Translations under genes and position numbers: made by a program
Part shown: piece by piece, positions 1 to 7,129 of the stretch
Position numbering within the stretch: position 1 is the first letter of the stretch
Layout of the letters: the number at the start of each line of letters is the position of its first letter
Notes under the pieces: model-generated
Told to the model about the DNA's origin: nothing
Databases searched by the model: none
What the model saw: the letters and a program-made list of their open reading frames with translations, nothing else
From: Burkholderiaceae bacterium
Lineage (GTDB): Bacteria > Pseudomonadota > Gammaproteobacteria > Burkholderiales > Burkholderiaceae_E
Direction: 5' to 3'
DNA length: 64,000 bases
NCBI GenBank assembly: GCA_024637395.1
Contig: JAGXFG010000009.1
Span: forward strand, 1,157-65,156

Positions 1-69
1 CCAAGCTGAAGACGCCAACCCGACGCTTGCCGCTAGGACCGCCAATTTCACAAAGACTTTGATGCCCAT
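1..69 (-). CDS. 5' end of a secreted-protein gene running off the left edge (only the signal peptide is visible)
   Basis: The reverse strand reads GGAG-N8-ATG, then MGIKVFVKLAVLAASVGLASSAW..., a typical Sec signal peptide. It is absent from the ORF track because the window edge truncates it. A competing + strand open frame (2..208) has no convincing start or RBS. Confidence 0.35.
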   Translation of the reverse strand, partial: MGIKVFVKLAVLAASVGLASSAW

Positions 70-460
70 GACACTTACTCCATTTAGTCGTTCAATCCAG
101 TCGCCACAGTATAAGCATCAACTGTGCCAGGACAACCATACCATTGAAATCAAACAGATTTTTCCAGGCTGTCGTTGCGACCAGGAAGATTTTGGTCGCT
201 GCCCGTAAGAATCGTCGGCACTAGCATTAGTGAACTTTGGCACAAACTAACCGTGGATCGACCTCTTTTAATCCCGCCCGGCGCGAGCAGTTCCTGTCCG
301 CGCCTGCTGAACGTACCAGTTGCCGTTGTTGAGGCGCACCGATACGCCCCGCGATCGAAGCGGCGGCCCTAGGGCCGAAACGCCTCGATCGTGCCTGCCG
401 AGGAGTCGTCTTTGCACTAAGCATCGGGTAGGGGACCGGGTCACCCCGGTCGCCCTCCCA

Positions 461-494
461 CACCACCGTACGTGCGGTTCCGCATACGGCGGTT
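461..494 (-). ncRNA. Group II intron domain V (catalytic hairpin)
   Basis: The reverse strand reads AACCGCCGUAUGCGGAACCGCACGUACGGUGGUG. The lower helix CCGCCGUAU pairs with GUACGGUGG, including G-U pairs. The upper helix is GCG/CGC with a GAAC loop, and there is a 2-nt AC bulge on the 3' strand. The catalytic triad is CGC, as in class C introns. Confidence 0.8.
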
Positions 495-703
495 CATGAT
501 TGAATCTGCAAGCGCCGGTGAGTATTCACCAGCGACACCAGCCCCATGTGGTCGAAGAACGACTTCTGGAACGCGTGGTTCATGTGGCTGGCCCCGGCAT
601 TCCACCAGGCACCGCGCCCGTTGGTCGCCGAGCGCCACGCGCGCTCCTCGGCCAATCCTCGCTTCATCAGCAGTCTAGGCCGCGGCGCAAACCCGGCCGG
701 CAT
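494..703 (-). pseudogene. C-terminal remnant of the group II intron-encoded protein (maturase/RT tail)
   Basis: The track ORF 494..703 translates as ...RLLMKRGLAEERAWRSATNGRGAWWNAGASHMNHAFQKSFFDHMGLVSLVN.... This follows the pattern typical of bacterial intron-encoded-protein C-termini (RG-x-AW-x-A-x-GRG-W-x-S/A-x-AL/F-x-F-x-GL-x-SL). The stop TGA abuts domain V. No RT domains lie upstream. Confidence 0.65.
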
Positions 704-911
704 GGCATACGGCGGCGAACTGCAGATTCCGGTAATCCTGCGGGAGGCAGGTTACTCCAGTCGTCCTTCCACCACCACGCTTTGGCTGCGCATTCCTCGA
801 GAATCGCAGACGCGCAGAACACCCTTGCCGGTCCGCTAACGTTTCCCACTGCCCGGTCCGTAGTGGACTTCCGCTTCCCGGTGGGTGCTGCTCCCTGTCC
901 GGGGCGCACCC

Positions 912-938
912 AAAAAAAACGCCCCGCATCGCGGGGCG
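912..938 (-). terminator. Rho-independent terminator of the PEP-CTERM gene 959..1783
   Basis: The reverse strand reads GCGCCCCGC-GAT-GCGGGGCG followed by TTTTTTTT, beginning about 20 nt after the stop codon. Confidence 0.85.
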
Positions 939-958
939 CTTTCTATCGTGGATTCAGT

Positions 959-1783
959 TCAGCTGCCGAGGCGACGCCTACGAATCGCGGCCAAACCGAG
1001 CAACCCCAGTCCGACCAAAGCGACGGAGACTGGCTCGGGGACTTGTGTCGGAGGCAGACATTCGCCGAGATCGCCCTTCCTGTCTGAAACGCAGCTCAGG
1101 TACGACCATTCCTCGAAGCCATCGTTATTCGGGAAACCACCCGCACCAACGGGACCACCGTAGCGACTGAACAGTTGGAGATCCGTATCGAGTGCATAGC
1201 CGCTGAACAGAGCGACCGGGATCTTCAGGTACATGTCGACGCCGTTACCGCTGCCGGCCGCCAGGCTGAAATTCAGCTTGATGGAATTGCCGTCTGTAAG
1301 GCTCCAGAGTGGTGTCACACCATCCAGTTGACCAGTAGCAAAACCGGTCAGAGAGCCATCGCCCAAAAAGATGCTGATTTCGTCGACGGTGAGGAACCAC
1401 TCGGGATCGGTCTTTACTTGATTGATATCCAACCGAAAGATTGCGAACCCATCTTGTATCCCGAGCTGACCAATCGTGACCACCTGGTTATCGTTTGGTG
1501 CACTACCCACGTCATTGTCGGCGAGAATTGATCCCGTCGTGTTGTAGTGTTGATAAGTCGGGTCTTGACCGCCAGGCGAGCCCAGGAAAGAGGGGAAAAT
1601 ACCGGTACCGACCGTGCCGCTGTTGGTGTCTGTATTGCAGACGACGGCGCCATCATTGATGCTCGTACAGACCTGCGCTCCTCCCGACCCTAGGGTCGTC
1701 ATGTCGATCTCTGCGGCGCTGGCGCCGCCCGCGCCAAGCAATAAGCCCGTCGCGACTGCCAAGGTGGAAAGCGTTTTTGACAT
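959..1783 (-). CDS. PEP-CTERM sorting-domain secreted protein (exosortase substrate)
   Basis: The C-terminus is ...PTQVPEPVSVALVGLGLLGLAAIRRRRLGS, i.e. a PEP motif, a TM helix and an Arg cluster. The signal peptide is MSKTLSTLAVATGLLLGAGGASA. The start at 1783 was chosen because GGAG lies 6 nt upstream. The track ORF extends to 1825. Confidence 0.9.
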   Translation of the reverse strand: MSKTLSTLAVATGLLLGAGGASAAEIDMTTLGSGGAQVCTSINDGAVVCNTDTNSGTVGTGIFPSFLGSPGGQDPTYQHYNTTGSILADNDVGSAPNDNQVVTIGQLGIQDGFAIFRLDINQVKTDPEWFLTVDEISIFLGDGSLTGFATGQLDGVTPLWSLTDGNSIKLNFSLAAGSGNGVDMYLKIPVALFSGYALDTDLQLFSRYGGPVGAGGFPNNDGFEEWSYLSCVSDRKGDLGECLPPTQVPEPVSVALVGLGLLGLAAIRRRRLGS

Positions 1784-1836
1784 ATTCATCTCCGTCATCG
1801 TTGCCGACTGCGAATGCGCGGTCACGACTTAAGCTC

Positions 1837-1852
1837 AGCAAACTTCGGGCCA
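1837..1852 (-). promoter_or_regulatory. Sigma-54 (-24/-12) promoter for the PEP-CTERM gene
   Basis: The reverse strand reads CTGGCCCGAAGTTTGCT against the consensus YTGGCACGrNNNTTGCW. There is one mismatch and the GG-N10-GC spacing is exact. It lies about 55 nt upstream of the start codon. Confidence 0.6.
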
Positions 1853-2058
1853 GGAAACCTTTCCAGTTAGTAATCAACCACTTAACAGATTCCGTCGGCA
1901 GCGCACCAGGACATTCGTAAAATATTTCGACAGAGCTAATTTTCCAGAAAACGAGACTCCCGCATGAGTTGGACGCTGTTTCTGCGTAACGCTCGTCTTG
2001 ATTACTGCCCGCTACCGCTGATTTCCACCTGGACGTTCTTGAGCGCACCCACGCGCGC

Positions 2059-2088
2059 CATTGAAGAAACGGCGGCCCCAAGGCCGCC
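2059..2088 (-). terminator. Terminator-like hairpin with no assigned gene
   Basis: The reverse strand reads GGCGGCC-TTGG-GGCCGCC followed by GTTTCTTCAATGG. It lies in the long spacer between the N-acyl amino acid synthase gene and the PEP-CTERM gene. Confidence 0.4.
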
Positions 2089-2330
2089 GTCCCATTTGCC
2101 ACAGATTACCGCGTGCGGTTCAGACTTTACGTTGAGAATTCGCCATCTCTTAGTCAAGATCGCCAAGTCTTCCAACCGACCCAAGCTGTCGTTTCGGAGT
2201 GACTCTGGCCCCGCTCTGCCACCCGAGCGCGACGCAAACCAGTCTGCTAGGGCATAGGAGCAGCCCGCGGTAAAGCAAACCGACACTTCCGATCCGGGGT
2301 TGTCACTACGTTGACGGAGAATCCGAACTT

Positions 2331-2363
2331 CGACCCGAAAAGGAAACGGGGCCTAACGGCCCC
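2331..2363 (-). terminator. Terminator-like hairpin ending the N-acyl amino acid synthase / small-ORF transcription unit
   Basis: The reverse strand reads GGGGCC-GTTA-GGCCCC followed by GTTTCCTTTTCGGG. The stop codon of small ORF 2353..2460 sits in the loop. Confidence 0.5.
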
Positions 2364-2681
2364 GAACAGCAAGAGCGTTCCAGGCAAGCGCACTGGCGGG
2401 GGTCATCAGCCAATCGGCGTACGCACCCCCGTTGGTGTGGAATCCGCCAGCGGCGGTCATATTTGTACTGCGGCACACCGCCCCCCAAAGTTGATGTAAT
2501 CCATGCCGGCGGGCTGGTGGGGACAATTCCCGCCAGGGAAGCAGATCCAACGGGGACTCAAAGGCATGGTTTTGACGATGTTTTCGCGGCTCGAAGCCAT
2601 GCCATACCTGGATTTATGCGGTTGAATTTCCTATCCGTATCAACGGAATCGGAGAGAGGGTTTACAGGAATCCAGGGATAT

Positions 2682-3482
2682 TCATCCAAACATTTCGCGG
2701 CTATCTTTGTCCAGGTCCAATAGCCTGTGGGCAATACCCTCCTCCTCGCGTTGGGAGAAAAAATAAGGATACAAGGATTTTTCAGATGCAGGGTGGTCAC
2801 TTGACCCGCCGAATTTCTGGATCTGGTGTTCCGCATAACCAAGTTCAAGCCTTAGCAGAACCGACGGTGCGTTGACGCGCGGGTTGTTCTTTGTTTGCCC
2901 GTGCCGTTTGAAGCCCAGCATTCTTTCATAAAAACGTCGATGCCTCGGATTGACCTCGACGAACAGGTCAGTGTAATTCCGAATGTGCCAAGCGTAGATG
3001 AAAGCGACATGAAAGACCGAAGCGAGAACCAGTTTTGAATGGACGTCGGGGTCGAAGGCGAGCTTGGTGAATTCGCAAATCCTGCTGCCCCCGCTCCTGA
3101 AAATATCGATTTCGTCCTTATAGGTTTCGTCGGCCAGAATTCCTGCGGGGGAGTCGAAAGAGATGGAAATTGTTCCGATCGTCGAGTGGTTTTCCGCGGC
3201 TATCAGGGTTAGCAGGTTGGGGTTTTCCAGCGTTTGGCTGGATGTGGCGTAGCCCCTCCACGAATACATCCGGTCGACGAGCATGTTAGCGGAGTTGCGG
3301 CCTTCATCCGTGTCGGCAAGACGGATGTTGAAGGTCTTGCGGTCTACCGCAGTATTCAGGATCTCGGCGTATGCCTCTTCTCCCTCCGGGGAAGGGGGGT
3401 CCGGCTTGGTGGGGACATAATGAACCTCGGCAATGGTCTTCCCGGTTGTCGTTTTGTCCCAGTCATGGCGAATTTGTGGCAC
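2682..3482 (-). CDS. N-acyl amino acid synthase, PEP-CTERM/exosortase-associated acyltransferase family (GNAT/LuxI-like fold)
   Basis: 266 aa with ...ICEFTKLAFDPDV...VFHVAFIYAWH...LFVEVNPRHRRFYERMLGF..., the hallmark core of FeeM-type long-chain N-acyl amino acid synthases. The GTG start has GGGAG 4 nt upstream. The gene is flanked on both sides by PEP-CTERM genes. Confidence 0.8.
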   Translation of the reverse strand: MPQIRHDWDKTTTGKTIAEVHYVPTKPDPPSPEGEEAYAEILNTAVDRKTFNIRLADTDEGRNSANMLVDRMYSWRGYATSSQTLENPNLLTLIAAENHSTIGTISISFDSPAGILADETYKDEIDIFRSGGSRICEFTKLAFDPDVHSKLVLASVFHVAFIYAWHIRNYTDLFVEVNPRHRRFYERMLGFKRHGQTKNNPRVNAPSVLLRLELGYAEHQIQKFGGSSDHPASEKSLYPYFFSQREEEGIAHRLLDLDKDSREMFG

Positions 3483-3630
3483 TTTGCTCCCACTTGATGC
3501 AAAGCGATTCCTATCCTTGCCTGAACCAGGCTCGGCGCAAACAGGGCCACCACCTTTTGGCCCGTTGCGTCACATGTCCGCCGACCACAGCAACTTCAGC
3601 AAGGATCTTGCCTGCTTGATCTTGGGAACG

Positions 3631-3653
3631 GGCCCTTGGCAGAGCCAAGGGCC
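3631..3653 (-). terminator. Perfect 10-bp stem-loop after the PEP-CTERM gene 3682..4863 (no U-tract)
   Basis: GGCCCTTGGC-aga-GCCAAGGGCC lies about 30 nt downstream of the stop codon. The lack of a T-run makes an intrinsic-terminator function uncertain. Confidence 0.4.
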
Positions 3654-3681
3654 GGATCGGACTTACTTTACTGACAGGTTT

Positions 3682-4863
3682 CTACTTGGGTGAGCGGCGA
3701 CCCCGCGTCGACCAGCCCAGCCCCAGCAATCCGAGCCCCATCAGGGCAATGGTGACAGGCTCGGGAACCTGCCGAGAGGCGACCGCGCCGACGATCCCGA
3801 ACTCCTCGCCACCATTGGTGTTGCAGCCGAGCGATCCCTCACCGCCGATAGGACCGGGACCATCTGTAACGCAGCCGACATTGACGGTGAAGACGAACAG
3901 GTCCGAGGAGTCGAACAGATTCAAATCCATGCCCGGCGCAAAGGCCAGAAAGTCCGGCTTGCCAGACCCCTTGTTGTGGTTAAGGCCCGAGTATTCGTCC
4001 CCATTGGCAGTGACCCCGGCACAACCGGTGCCGGTCAATATGCTGTATGGGCCAGCGGCAGTACAGGCCTCGACGCTGCCGTAAAAGTTCACCGTTCCGT
4101 AGTTGAACGTGGGGTCGGCGATGTTCAACCCACTGCCGTCGGTGCGGTCCAGGTTCCACTGCCCCAACATGGTCGTCTGGGTCTCGTCCCAGATTTGGAT
4201 CATGGCGCTGACCCACAGGGAGTCATCATTGCCCGTCTGGTTGTAGTCCGCATAGAGCACCGGAATGCTCGCCAGCGGGTCGAGGGTCTGCAGATAGGTC
4301 AGGATCTCGCCGACCGTCGAGGTGCCGCCCTGTGCGCTAGCGGGATCGCTATATGACTGCAACGGTGGGGGCGGGGTGGCATATTCGGTATAAATCTGCG
4401 TATTGCCGCCCCATACGCCGGTCCAACCGGGAAGGGTGTCGCTACTGGCCGTATCGACCGGATCCTGGAGACTCACGCCGCTGCCGTTCGGGTTCACGTT
4501 GGTCGCACCACCCGCGTTAGAGGTGAGATTGACTGCGATGGTGCCCGTTCCGACCGAGAAATCGTAAACGCCGAAGGTGGTTACCGGCAGGAAGGTGGTT
4601 TGGGTCGTGTTGCTCTGAATGGCGTTGAGCAGAGGTGCAGAATAGGACCAGTAATCATCGTACTTCAGTGCGATCGGGATGCCGTTCATCATAATGGCAG
4701 CCCGCGTCTCGCCCAACGCATCCAGGTAGGTTCCGTAGGTGGCGTAGGCGTTATTCTCCGGCGTTGGCAATTGGAAGAGAGCTGTTGTTGCAGCTCCCGC
4801 CCCTGCGGAGGCTGCAATGCAGGAAGCTCCAAGCAGTGCAGACATCAACTTCTTCATCTTCAT
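3682..4863 (-). CDS. PEP-CTERM sorting-domain secreted protein (exosortase substrate)
   Basis: The C-terminus is ...SRQVPEPVTIALMGLGLLGLGWSTRGRRSPK. The signal peptide is MKMKKLMSALLGASCIAASAGAGAA. GGGGGA lies 6 nt upstream of the ATG. Confidence 0.9.
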   Translation of the reverse strand: MKMKKLMSALLGASCIAASAGAGAATTALFQLPTPENNAYATYGTYLDALGETRAAIMMNGIPIALKYDDYWSYSAPLLNAIQSNTTQTTFLPVTTFGVYDFSVGTGTIAVNLTSNAGGATNVNPNGSGVSLQDPVDTASSDTLPGWTGVWGGNTQIYTEYATPPPPLQSYSDPASAQGGTSTVGEILTYLQTLDPLASIPVLYADYNQTGNDDSLWVSAMIQIWDETQTTMLGQWNLDRTDGSGLNIADPTFNYGTVNFYGSVEACTAAGPYSILTGTGCAGVTANGDEYSGLNHNKGSGKPDFLAFAPGMDLNLFDSSDLFVFTVNVGCVTDGPGPIGGEGSLGCNTNGGEEFGIVGAVASRQVPEPVTIALMGLGLLGLGWSTRGRRSPK

Positions 4864-4997
4864 GATTTTCCCCCTGACTGAGACGGGCCATCAAATCGCT
4901 TCGACAATTCGAGTGCGCTCTGCAAAATCTACGCATCTATCTGGAAAGTCACGCTGAGCGCTAGAACTTGCAGACTTTGGCACCGCATCTATGGGTA

Positions 4998-5013
4998 AGC
5001 AATTTTCATACCG
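4998..5013 (-). promoter_or_regulatory. Candidate sigma-54 promoter for the PEP-CTERM gene 3682..4863
   Basis: The reverse strand reads CCGGTATGAAAATTGCT. The GG-N10-GC spacing is correct and the -12 element TTGCT is intact, but the -24 element is weak (3 mismatches). It lies about 135 nt upstream of the start. Confidence 0.3.
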
Positions 5014-5158
5014 GCCGCCAGCCAAGCAGGCACAGGCCTATGATAAATAGGGAATTATTTAAGAATACTCTGGTTCGGCCGACCTCTCGGCGGCACTTGT
5101 CGAGCGCCAATGTAAAATTATTCGACACCTGGCCCCGCCTGACTGACCCTTGAGTGCT

Positions 5159-6247
5159 TCATATCCAGGATTCGCCCACTATCAGATCATCCAGGGAAAG
5201 CCGCAGCGAGCGGGACTCGGGCGGTTTTCCGGAGCCGACCCGTCCCATGAACAGCACGCACGCAGGTAGCGTCTCCCCCAGCAAGTGCTGCAGCTGGCCG
5301 GACAGGCGCCGCGCCCGGTCGTGCATGGCGGGGGTCTGGGAAAAGGCAAGCCCCTCACGGATATAGCGACCAAAAATCAGCGGGGTCATCTCCGGCTGCA
5401 GTTGCAGGCCCAGACTTGTGGCAGTGAGCCAGAAACGCTGGACCGCCCGGCCTGCGGCCACGTAATCCTCTATGGTTTCAGGTGCTTGATTGGCCAGGAT
5501 GGCAAAGTGCGCGGCACAGAACAGGCCTGGCAGGAGATCCATTTCGATCCGCGGCACCATGTGCCCGGCAAGATAAGTGTTAAAGAAATCGACACGCTGC
5601 CAACTCGCCATGACCCAGCGCATCAATTTGAGGGTCATCTTATCCAACCCCAAGGCCTGATCGGGTACCTTGTCCTCGCTGTATCGGGTGTTCCACTCGA
5701 TGACGTCACGGTGAACGGGATAGGCTTCGGGCAGGGTAAGCCTGAGCTTGGCATTGTCGAACATCAGTTTGGCCAACTGCCAGCGTTGTGGCCCGCCCTC
5801 GAACCAGCGCACGGTGTAACATTTTCCGCCAGCGCCTTGCAAAGCCTGTTTCTGCGATGCGGTGAGGGGGATGGTACGCATCGGCCGACGCTGCACTGAA
5901 CGCTGCCGGATATGGGGCAGCAGGGGATCGGACGTCACGGCACTGTCCGGGATCAAGTCCACAAGATAGTCGGGGTGAGGATCCGGAGAACCGGGGCGTC
6001 GCCTGAATTCCGCCCGCAGGCCATGCGGGCTGGCGGCTATAGCCAAGGTTTCCAGCAGCGCGCCCAAGGAAGTTTGGCTAGGGTGGCCGTCGAGGTCATA
6101 GACGCAATGGTCGCGGGTATCGAAGGCGTGGACGATCAAATGGCGTTCGTCGATGATCTCAAAGCGCCAGGGCTGGGTGTTGTCGCCGGAGGGCGCCCAG
6201 CGGGCGAGTTCGAGAATATCGGCGATGGGCTGGGGAATCGGCTGCAT
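5159..6247 (-). CDS. Two-lobed nitroreductase-family protein (Acg/SagB-like architecture)
   Basis: The N-terminus ADILELARWAPSGDNTQPWRFEI is the classic nitroreductase motif. At 362 aa it is about twice the size of a single nitroreductase domain. Its start codon directly follows the ThiF stop (TAGATG). Confidence 0.85.
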   Translation of the reverse strand: MQPIPQPIADILELARWAPSGDNTQPWRFEIIDERHLIVHAFDTRDHCVYDLDGHPSQTSLGALLETLAIAASPHGLRAEFRRRPGSPDPHPDYLVDLIPDSAVTSDPLLPHIRQRSVQRRPMRTIPLTASQKQALQGAGGKCYTVRWFEGGPQRWQLAKLMFDNAKLRLTLPEAYPVHRDVIEWNTRYSEDKVPDQALGLDKMTLKLMRWVMASWQRVDFFNTYLAGHMVPRIEMDLLPGLFCAAHFAILANQAPETIEDYVAAGRAVQRFWLTATSLGLQLQPEMTPLIFGRYIREGLAFSQTPAMHDRARRLSGQLQHLLGETLPACVLFMGRVGSGKPPESRSLRLSLDDLIVGESWI

Positions 6248-7129
6248 CTATAGTCCGAGTTTGCGTTTGGCGAGGGCAATGGCGAGACGCTGCAAGGGGT
6301 TGCGGTTGCCGCCGGGTCGCCAGGTCAGCGCCAGCTTGTTGCGGTAGGCATCGAAGTGATAGCCCTTGGGGGCCGTCCGAACCGGGCCGCGGCCGAGGAG
6401 AATTTTCAGGGCTTCGGTTGCCGCCACGCCAGCGCAAAGCTGGCAGGCCATGGTGGTGGACGGGCCCTTGCGATTGGCCAGATCAACTGCGGAGGGGTCG
6501 GCCAAGTAGCCCATTTGCAGGCGGGCAGGCGCAAGCCCCATGAGGAAACGCATGGGCATTTCCTCCTCGGGGCCGTCGTCCAGGCGAAAATAATCACTAA
6601 AACTCATGCCGCCCGGCAAAAAATTGAGCACCGCCGCGCCCATTCCAAGAGGGGCTGCGGTGACGGCGGGGATACCTTTTGCCGCACATGCGGCAAAGAC
6701 CTGCTGGCGAGCCTGAAAAGCGAAGAAATCCAGGCCATCGACGTAGAGGTCCACACCATCCAGAAAGGCATCCAGGTTGTCGCTTGTCACTCCGTCGGCA
6801 AATTCCTTGATTTCAAGCTCGGGATTGATGTCGCGCGCCTGGCGGGTCATGACATCCATCTTGCCCAAGCCCAAGGTGCTGACCATCGCTCCGGCCTGAC
6901 GATTGAAATTCGTCAGATCGAAGGTATCGAACTCGGCCAGATGAAATTTGCCTACGCCCAGCCGACAAAGCGTTAGCAGGTGTATCCCGCCCACGCCACC
7001 CAGCCCGGCAATCGCCACCCGTTTGTGGCGCAACTGTTGCTGCTCCGGCTGGGTCAGCCAGCCGAAGTTGCGGGAAAAAGCTTCATCATAGGTAAAGGAT
7101 TGCATATGATCAAACCATATTGAATGCAT
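6248..7129 (-). CDS. ThiF/MoeB/HesA-family E1-like adenylyltransferase
   Basis: KRVAIAGLGGVGGIHLL (a Rossmann GxGxxG) is followed by NFNRQ and a DGLD motif. No CxxC zinc pairs are present. The start may instead be the second Met at 7105 (MQSFTYDEAFSRNFGW). Confidence 0.85.
   Translation of the reverse strand: MHSIWFDHMQSFTYDEAFSRNFGWLTQPEQQQLRHKRVAIAGLGGVGGIHLLTLCRLGVGKFHLAEFDTFDLTNFNRQAGAMVSTLGLGKMDVMTRQARDINPELEIKEFADGVTSDNLDAFLDGVDLYVDGLDFFAFQARQQVFAACAAKGIPAVTAAPLGMGAAVLNFLPGGMSFSDYFRLDDGPEEEMPMRFLMGLAPARLQMGYLADPSAVDLANRKGPSTTMACQLCAGVAATEALKILLGRGPVRTAPKGYHFDAYRNKLALTWRPGGNRNPLQRLAIALAKRKLGL

Follow-up and report, generated by a model that had tools for sequence, protein, structure and literature searches.

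Behind the terminator of a PEP-CTERM gene in a Burkholderiaceae bacterium lies a short element that has the beginning and the end of a group IIC intron and lacks its interior. The preliminary description of this locus took the element as one intron shortened by an internal deletion, possibly still able to splice or to be mobilised in trans. The question raised is whether the two ends belong to the same intron at all, and whether what is left of them could still work. The window referred to below is the whole 64-kb stretch of DNA that was analysed. The element occupies 909..423 on the minus strand (909-423+1 = 487 nt), with domain V starting 415 nt past the GTGCG, and both lengths are as first described.

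The terminator and the intron start

The gene for the PEP-CTERM sorting-domain protein is an ORF at 1825..959 (minus), with a match to Pfam PF07589 at residues 261-284 and further matches to the NCBIfam PEP-CTERM models. The gene is context only, while its terminator is the docking site of the intron. This intrinsic terminator begins 20 nt past the stop codon and extends over 939..912 (minus). It consists of the arms GCGCCCCGC (939..931) and GCGGGGCG (927..920), the loop GAT (930..928) and a run of eight T residues (919..912), and its 9/8-bp G+C stem, 3-nt loop and T8 are those of a Rho-independent terminator. The hairpin folds at -22.9 kcal/mol (z = -4.67 versus shuffles) and the stem was also found as an inverted repeat. 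Other weak Rfam matches in 1..2500 (asX2 and others) were rejected as a mere reflection of this hairpin.

Two bases past the T8, GTGCGCCCCGGACAGGGAGCAG starts at 909 (minus). The arrangement of a terminator with GTGCG two bases later was therefore confirmed (939..912 and 909, z = -4.7). The two bases in between, GG at 911..910, form the short 5′-exon stretch where IIC introns have IBS1. Insertion just past a hairpin and T-run is a habit of class C introns (PMC1702495, PMC4424553). Their IBS1 is short, at 3-4 nt. The order of hairpin, T8, GG and then GTGCG at 909 is that of a IIC site.

The relatives of the element were collected by scanning its protein tail against one genome per species, which yielded 80 loci. 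Approximately 45 of these carry an uninterrupted intron of ~1.88 kb. Nearly all relatives with a 5′ flank show a hairpin, a T-rich run and then (T/G)G directly before the intron start GTGCGCCCGGCAGGG. The docking geometry at 909 is the same as in more than 40 full-length relatives, and the homing of class C introns to sites behind terminators, as named in the preliminary description, applies to this locus. The intron protein of one relative (L034, 425 aa) was recognised by TIGR04416, the model for group II intron reverse transcriptase/maturase, with 414 bits.

A nucleotide profile of 1880 positions was built for nhmmer from 34 full-length relatives of 1.9 kb, and a consensus structure and domain map were drawn from 15 diverse relatives (56 pairs with compensatory changes). 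The profile matches in the whole 64-kb window are to positions 1-127 (909..778) and to positions ~1600/1620-1880 (703/683..423), with a weak extra match at 1838-1872. For profile positions 128-1600, nothing was found by nhmmer in the 64-kb window, and the window holds no second intron copy. The origin from a group IIC intron, as first proposed, is upheld by the profile, domain V and the geometry of the site. An empty orthologous site was also sought; the PEP-CTERM protein has no homologue closer than 66% identity, and hence there was no usable ortholog by which to order the events.

Some features of the surroundings may be recorded here. At 114-129 of the window (minus), TGGCACAGTTGATGCT fits the spacing of a sigma-54 promoter, with GG and GC 12 bases apart, and lies ~45 bases upstream of the next minus-strand ORF (ATG at 69). 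This match is unique in the window, yet 27 of 100 shuffles yield at least one. Between two PEP-CTERM genes, at 2682-7129 (minus), there are three adjacent genes. They encode a 266-aa protein, a 362-aa protein like the Acg-family FMN oxidoreductases and a 293-aa ThiF/E1-like protein (PRK08223, 465 bits). The three match successive parts of the long fused model PRK14852, and the set looks like a split version of a multidomain protein.

Divergence of the two intron ends

The 3′ part of the element, piece D (703..423, minus), is a young IIC copy that is truncated at its 5′ end. It corresponds to intron positions ~1600-1880 and was matched by nhmmer with 245.2 bits (E = 3.9e-75; aligned 683..423, envelope to 703). 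Domain V lies at 493..462 and domain VI at 460..425 (both minus), and the intron 3′ end is at 423. The check by RF00029 (domains V-VI), which had been suggested at the outset, gave a match over the full model length at 494..423, scoring 48.5 bits where the gathering threshold is 40; no other Rfam hit occurs in the 64-kb window. The fold of domains V/VI has -48.1 kcal/mol (z = -5.2), and none of 200 shuffles was as good.

The domain V of IIC introns has a CGC instead of an AGC triad and a distal stem that is 2 bp shorter (PMC1702495). In piece D, CGC stands opposite the Rfam consensus AGC, and four consensus positions are deleted at the distal stem/loop. Domain VI is the hairpin GACCGGG-GTGA-CCCGGTC, with an unpaired A seven bases from the GAU end. 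The CGC triad and the domain VI hairpin with its unpaired A had been read correctly before. An ORF of 69 aa (703..494, minus) ends just before domain V, and its last ~60 aa correspond to the C-termini of intron proteins. When the 425-aa protein of a relative was used in tblastn, residues 361-422 only were found in the window. The element shows no reverse-transcriptase motifs, and of the RT/maturase of a IIC intron, a protein that has no endonuclease domain, it keeps just the final ~60 residues, in agreement with the ~60 codons of protein tail that had been described. The Pfam and NCBIfam models found nothing in the 69-aa ORF.

The closest copies of this 3′ part are in Rubrivivax and Burkholderiaceae MAGs. 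Another protein encoded nearby in the window also groups with Burkholderiaceae sequences, and the host probably belongs to the Burkholderiales. Piece D is 94.8% identical to the copy of a Rubrivivax MAG (L001) by blastn, or 93% with gaps counted, and the protein tails are 92% identical. In the Rubrivivax copy, the intron protein is split into two overlapping frames (2527-3585 and 3290-4180). This split reflects either a frameshift or a sequencing error, and the copy itself may be inactive. An independent 5′-truncated copy (L003, ~1272) starts at profile position 1596, near the start of piece D (~703, profile ~1600). The shared start lies in the variable linker before the conserved protein tail, and reverse transcription may preferentially stop or break off at profile ~1596-1600.

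The 5′ part, piece A (909..778, minus), is a decayed stump of a IIC intron that covers positions 1-127 (nhmmer 58.6 bits, E = 7e-19 in the window). The GTGCG end is thus homologous to domain I, a point on which the preliminary description had allowed for the opposite outcome. Piece A contains the GUGCG start, the 5′ strands of helices I(i) and I(ii), the subdomains IA, IB and IC and the AGGAA motif. It has, in other words, the GUGYG start and a IIC-type domain I with the AGGAA bulge motif, and GAGGAA lies within the profile alignment of positions 1-127. Its structure has eroded: 18 of 29 conserved local pairs are kept and 11 are broken, against 28-29 kept in all 15 diverse relatives. The GNRA loop of IC1 is gone, and the fold is no better than that of shuffles (z = -0.3). 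A metagenome collection was scanned for the variant 5′ end with the exact pattern GTGCGCCCCGGACAGGG-N18-30-GAAGTCC, in which only exact matches count, and no intron was found. The lone match (L081) lies in G+C-rich coding sequence where Rfam sees no intron signal, and was discarded as chance.

The two ends differ strongly in divergence. No relative is more than 71% identical to piece A, whereas piece D is 93% identical to the Rubrivivax copy. Out of 561 pairs of relatives, those with a D-region identity of 90% or more have a mean A-region identity of 96.3% and a minimum of 86.6%. No two of the relatives, a set spanning several phyla, are less than 74.8% identical in the A region, and piece A falls below even this value. 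Since equal neutral decay cannot yield such a contrast, the 5′ piece would be much older than the 3′ piece. Judged by this divergence, the two ends derive from copies of very different age.

It is at this point that the reading of a single intron copy, now dead after one internal deletion, has to be weighed. Both ends are indeed present, in the right order and orientation behind the terminator, and clean cases of this kind occur among the relatives. In one of them (L061, 645 nt), positions 1-247 are joined to 1482-1876. For the present element this origin is nonetheless very unlikely: one end is 71% and the other 93% identical, the helices of piece A are broken whereas domains V/VI and the ORF tail of piece D are intact, an extra 3′ end lies in between, and ~75 intervening bases cannot be matched to either side of a simple junction. 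The statement that both ends are retained while the interior is missing stands, and the further step to one intron with one internal deletion does not. The decayed second 3′ end in the middle of the element and the very unequal divergence of the ends had both been missed.

The material between the ends and the order of events

The second 3′ end is piece B (780..735, minus), a decayed relic of the last ~47 bases of the intron, to which the weak extra profile match at positions 1838-1872 belongs. Its sequence, GCGTGGTGGTGGAAGGACGACTGGAGTAACCTGCCTCCCGCAGGAT, aligns end to end with the last ~47 bases of the relatives, from the end of the domain V 3′ strand through domain VI to the terminal GAT. 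Piece B begins exactly where the domain I homology ends (~778) and is joined directly to piece A. Against the last 75 nt of the relatives it reaches a local score of 23, where the null is 10.1 +/- 1.6 and none of 100 shuffles comes up to it. Piece B is ~79% identical to its best relative, or ~61-68% with gaps counted, a divergence like that of piece A, and its hairpin is no longer stable (z = -0.4).

Piece B could also resemble an intron end by chance. An old 5′ stump, made of piece A and unrecognisable DNA up to ~704, would then be abutted by the younger truncated piece D; the element would still be composite and dead, and would include no relic reduced to its ends. The nhmmer score of piece B, at about -2 bits when taken alone, and a longer version of the shuffle test, in which 1 of 300 shuffles reached the observed score, are in keeping with this, as is a weak alternative placement. 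In that placement, made with MAFFT, piece B was tried as a collinear continuation of domain I or as a fragment of domain II. The scores were 11 against a null of 12.1 and 19 against 15.5, which is at or near chance, and the assignment to the 3′ end was preferred. A chance resemblance is unlikely, given the score of 23 with its null, the alignment that runs end to end to the terminal GAT and the start exactly where the homology to domain I stops.

Piece B is followed by a spacer of 31 bases, piece C (734..704, minus), which has no significant match to any part of the relatives. Within it, 715..705 repeats exactly 11 bases of the domain V 5′ strand, CCGCCGTATGC (492..482), and this direct repeat extends one base into the neighbour of the spacer. 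A hairpin target was looked for in front of piece D, and none was found above shuffles. The downstream flank (422..290) was also tried as a source of copies of the terminator/GTGCGCC junction and of piece B, and was rejected, as the best local score of 13 against a null mean of 13.8 is chance.

Group II reverse transcriptases are known for template switching. A single abortive retrohoming event with several such switches, moving from the 3′ part through a piece of domain V and another RNA's 3′ end to the 5′ part of domain I, could have left a scrambled mini-copy. The exact domain V copy in the spacer and the two 3′ ends in tandem would both be explained in this way. One event predicts equal divergence throughout, however, and pieces A and B are at ~60-71% where piece D is at 93%. 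The many uncompensated broken pairs of piece A would moreover mean that the template was already a dead intron. Such an event is quite unlikely as the source of the element.

The explanation that is favoured, with fair but limited confidence and for the 64 kb of genome examined, is that 909..423 is non-functional debris of at least two IIC insertions at one intergenic spot behind the PEP-CTERM terminator. On the best reading, 909..735 (pieces A and B) is one old intron cut down to its ends, ~175 nt in all. The first intron would have inserted in the manner of IIC introns past the terminator hairpin and T-run, an event to which the preserved site points. Its interior would then have been lost between position ~127 of domain I and the last ~47 bases, and point mutations would have turned the remainder into the present pieces A and B. 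Much later, a Rubrivivax-like copy would have landed ~31 bases downstream. It may have been 5′-truncated on arrival, which is the usual product of incomplete reverse transcription, or truncated afterwards, giving piece D. What remained after this second step would be domains V and VI, both intact, and the final ~60 codons of the intron protein. The spacer, with its 11-base copy of domain V, may be junction filler.

Two observations count against this favoured explanation. A newer IIC insertion at the same terminator is expected upstream of the older relic, yet piece D lies downstream of it, and with no hairpin target above chance in front. In addition, piece B is short (~47 nt), scores weakly in nhmmer when alone and has the weaker collinear MAFFT placement mentioned above (19 versus a null of 15.5). 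The position of the young copy just 3′ of the old ends-only relic, and not at the terminator itself, has led to the idea that the 3′ hairpins of remnants already in place can serve IIC introns for secondary docking. A companion idea is that the 175-nt ends-only relic is a bacterial counterpart of the Euglena group III mini-introns, excised by a helper RNP. That either holds is highly improbable.

Loss of the catalytic core

According to the domain map, the element lacks subdomain ID, the 3′ strands of I(i) and I(ii), domains II and III, J2/3 and the start of domain IV, and so falls short of a complete ribozyme of six domains (I-VI). The Rfam group-II-D1D4 models, whose use had been proposed at the outset, gave no match at E <= 10 in a permissive scan of 1..2500. 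The missing parts were mapped with the profile of 34 relatives and the structure of 15. A ribozyme without the exon-binding subdomain, domains II/III and J2/3 cannot recognise exons or build a catalytic core. In IIC introns, EBS1 and EBS3 sit in subdomain ID (PMC1702495). This subdomain (alignment columns 126-302) lies beyond the end of the homology at position 127, and the element therefore has neither EBS1 nor EBS3.

The suggestion that the element is still spliceable or mobilisable in trans did not survive this comparison. Without subdomain ID and the helices that close domain I, and with J2/3, domains II and III and the reverse transcriptase lost as well, neither splicing nor trans mobilisation is credible, and 909..423 cannot act as a ribozyme or a retroelement. 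The element is probably little transcribed, as it is downstream of an intact terminator. Most likely, it has no present function.

A working non-autonomous mini-intron would have to be spliced or mobilised by a helper intron protein or RNP from elsewhere in the genome. Domains V and VI are intact and the 5′ GUGCG is correct. The ORF-less introns of Thermosynechococcus are mobilised in trans, and in Euglena, group III introns function with no more than domain I-like and VI-like parts (both in PMC2882425, the latter as a mention). Against these precedents stand the loss of the exon-binding subdomain ID, of the helices closing domain I, of domains II and III and of J2/3, and the 11 of 29 retained pairs that are broken, where 15 relatives have 0-1 broken. 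There is also no second copy in the window, the exact scan of the metagenomes gave no intron bearing the variant 5′ end, and the junctions of other shortened relatives all differ. A working mini-intron is thus exceedingly improbable. Both the single deletion and the active mini-intron are disfavoured by the contrast in divergence and the missing core.

Known systems and the remnants of relatives

The element shares with the IIC introns that follow terminators, such as B.h.I1 of Bacillus halodurans and O.i.I1 of Oceanobacillus iheyensis (PMC1702495, PMC4424553), the GUGCG start, AGGAA, a CGC domain V with a short distal stem, a domain VI with a bulged A and a hairpin/T-run site. The protein tail at 703..494 is homologous to that of relatives whose full proteins match TIGR04416, as in IIC introns. 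It differs from introns of the B.h.I1/O.i.I1 type in that only ~127 nt at the 5′ end and ~280 nt at the 3′ end survive, with no EBS, domain II, domain III or RT, and in the unequal age of the ends.

Dead intergenic leftovers of group II introns have been described in Sinorhizobium, where the RmInt1-like remnant FRE652 and an internally deleted RmInt1 copy are found (PMC4181065). Both 5′-truncation and internal deletion occur there as well. Here, by contrast, two remnants of unequal age lie head to tail at one terminator, and one of them consists of ends only. The ORF-less introns of Thermosynechococcus elongatus (PMC2882425) resemble the element in their internal deletion with protein-coding remnants and in keeping both intron ends. 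In T. elongatus, only the ORF inside domain IV is lost, the ribozyme stays intact and the same break-points recur in 17 copies, whereas here the loss goes beyond domain IV: it takes away the core, with domains II and III entirely and domain I for the most part. The relic formed by pieces A and B is superficially like the group III introns of Euglena chloroplasts (as in PMC2882425), with domain I-like and VI-like parts and no domain V. Its helices are decayed, however, it lies outside any gene and nothing suggests splicing.

The majority of bacterial group II copies have been truncated or inactivated, and introns that are truly ORF-less are rare (PMC4424553). Intron remnants persist and drift in genomes (PMC4181065). 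Seven of the 80 loci are derivatives that lack the interior (L009, L031, L057, L060, L061, L069 and L080), six of which have the 5′ start, and their junctions are all different. The 5′-truncated copies include L003, L006, L074 and L076. Two copies are split by ~2.5 kb of foreign DNA at profile positions ~950 and ~1485, namely L015 (3-797 and 3317-4248) and L028 (1-1232 and 3849-4248); the inserts are probably insertion sequences. The best 60 database matches to the protein tail (P0002-P0060) are all short ORFs of 56-120 aa, many of them on long contigs, and in P0056 the YADD motif of the RT is immediately followed by the tail. Remnants of this clade that keep only the tail or have lost their interior seem to be very widespread.

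The element is thus a composite fossil of an ordinary kind, and another instance of the known truncated copies. It carries little weight for biology, as one more fossil of IIC introns that repeatedly hit terminator-adjacent sites and then erode, and it illustrates truncation, internal deletion and point decay as routes of erosion. For annotation, it means that domains V/VI and a GUGCG behind a terminator prove neither a single nor an active element. Comparison of the divergence of both ends with full-length relatives exposes such composites. The 69-codon ORF at 703..494 should be annotated as a pseudogene tail, not as a gene.

Two further observations were made among the relatives. The MAG CAWDTD01 (uncultured delta proteobacterium MFD03726.bin.2.121) has at least ten intron loci (L019-L028), most of them nearly identical, full-length and with the same scores. 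Not all of their 5′ flanks, which vary, are clear terminators, and the set looks like a recent burst of proliferation. In a Hydrogenophilus MAG (L008), domain I has an insertion of 57 bases at ~2435-2495 (alignment columns 142-198), which contains the inverted repeat GCGACTTAGCGC...GCGCTTAGTCG.
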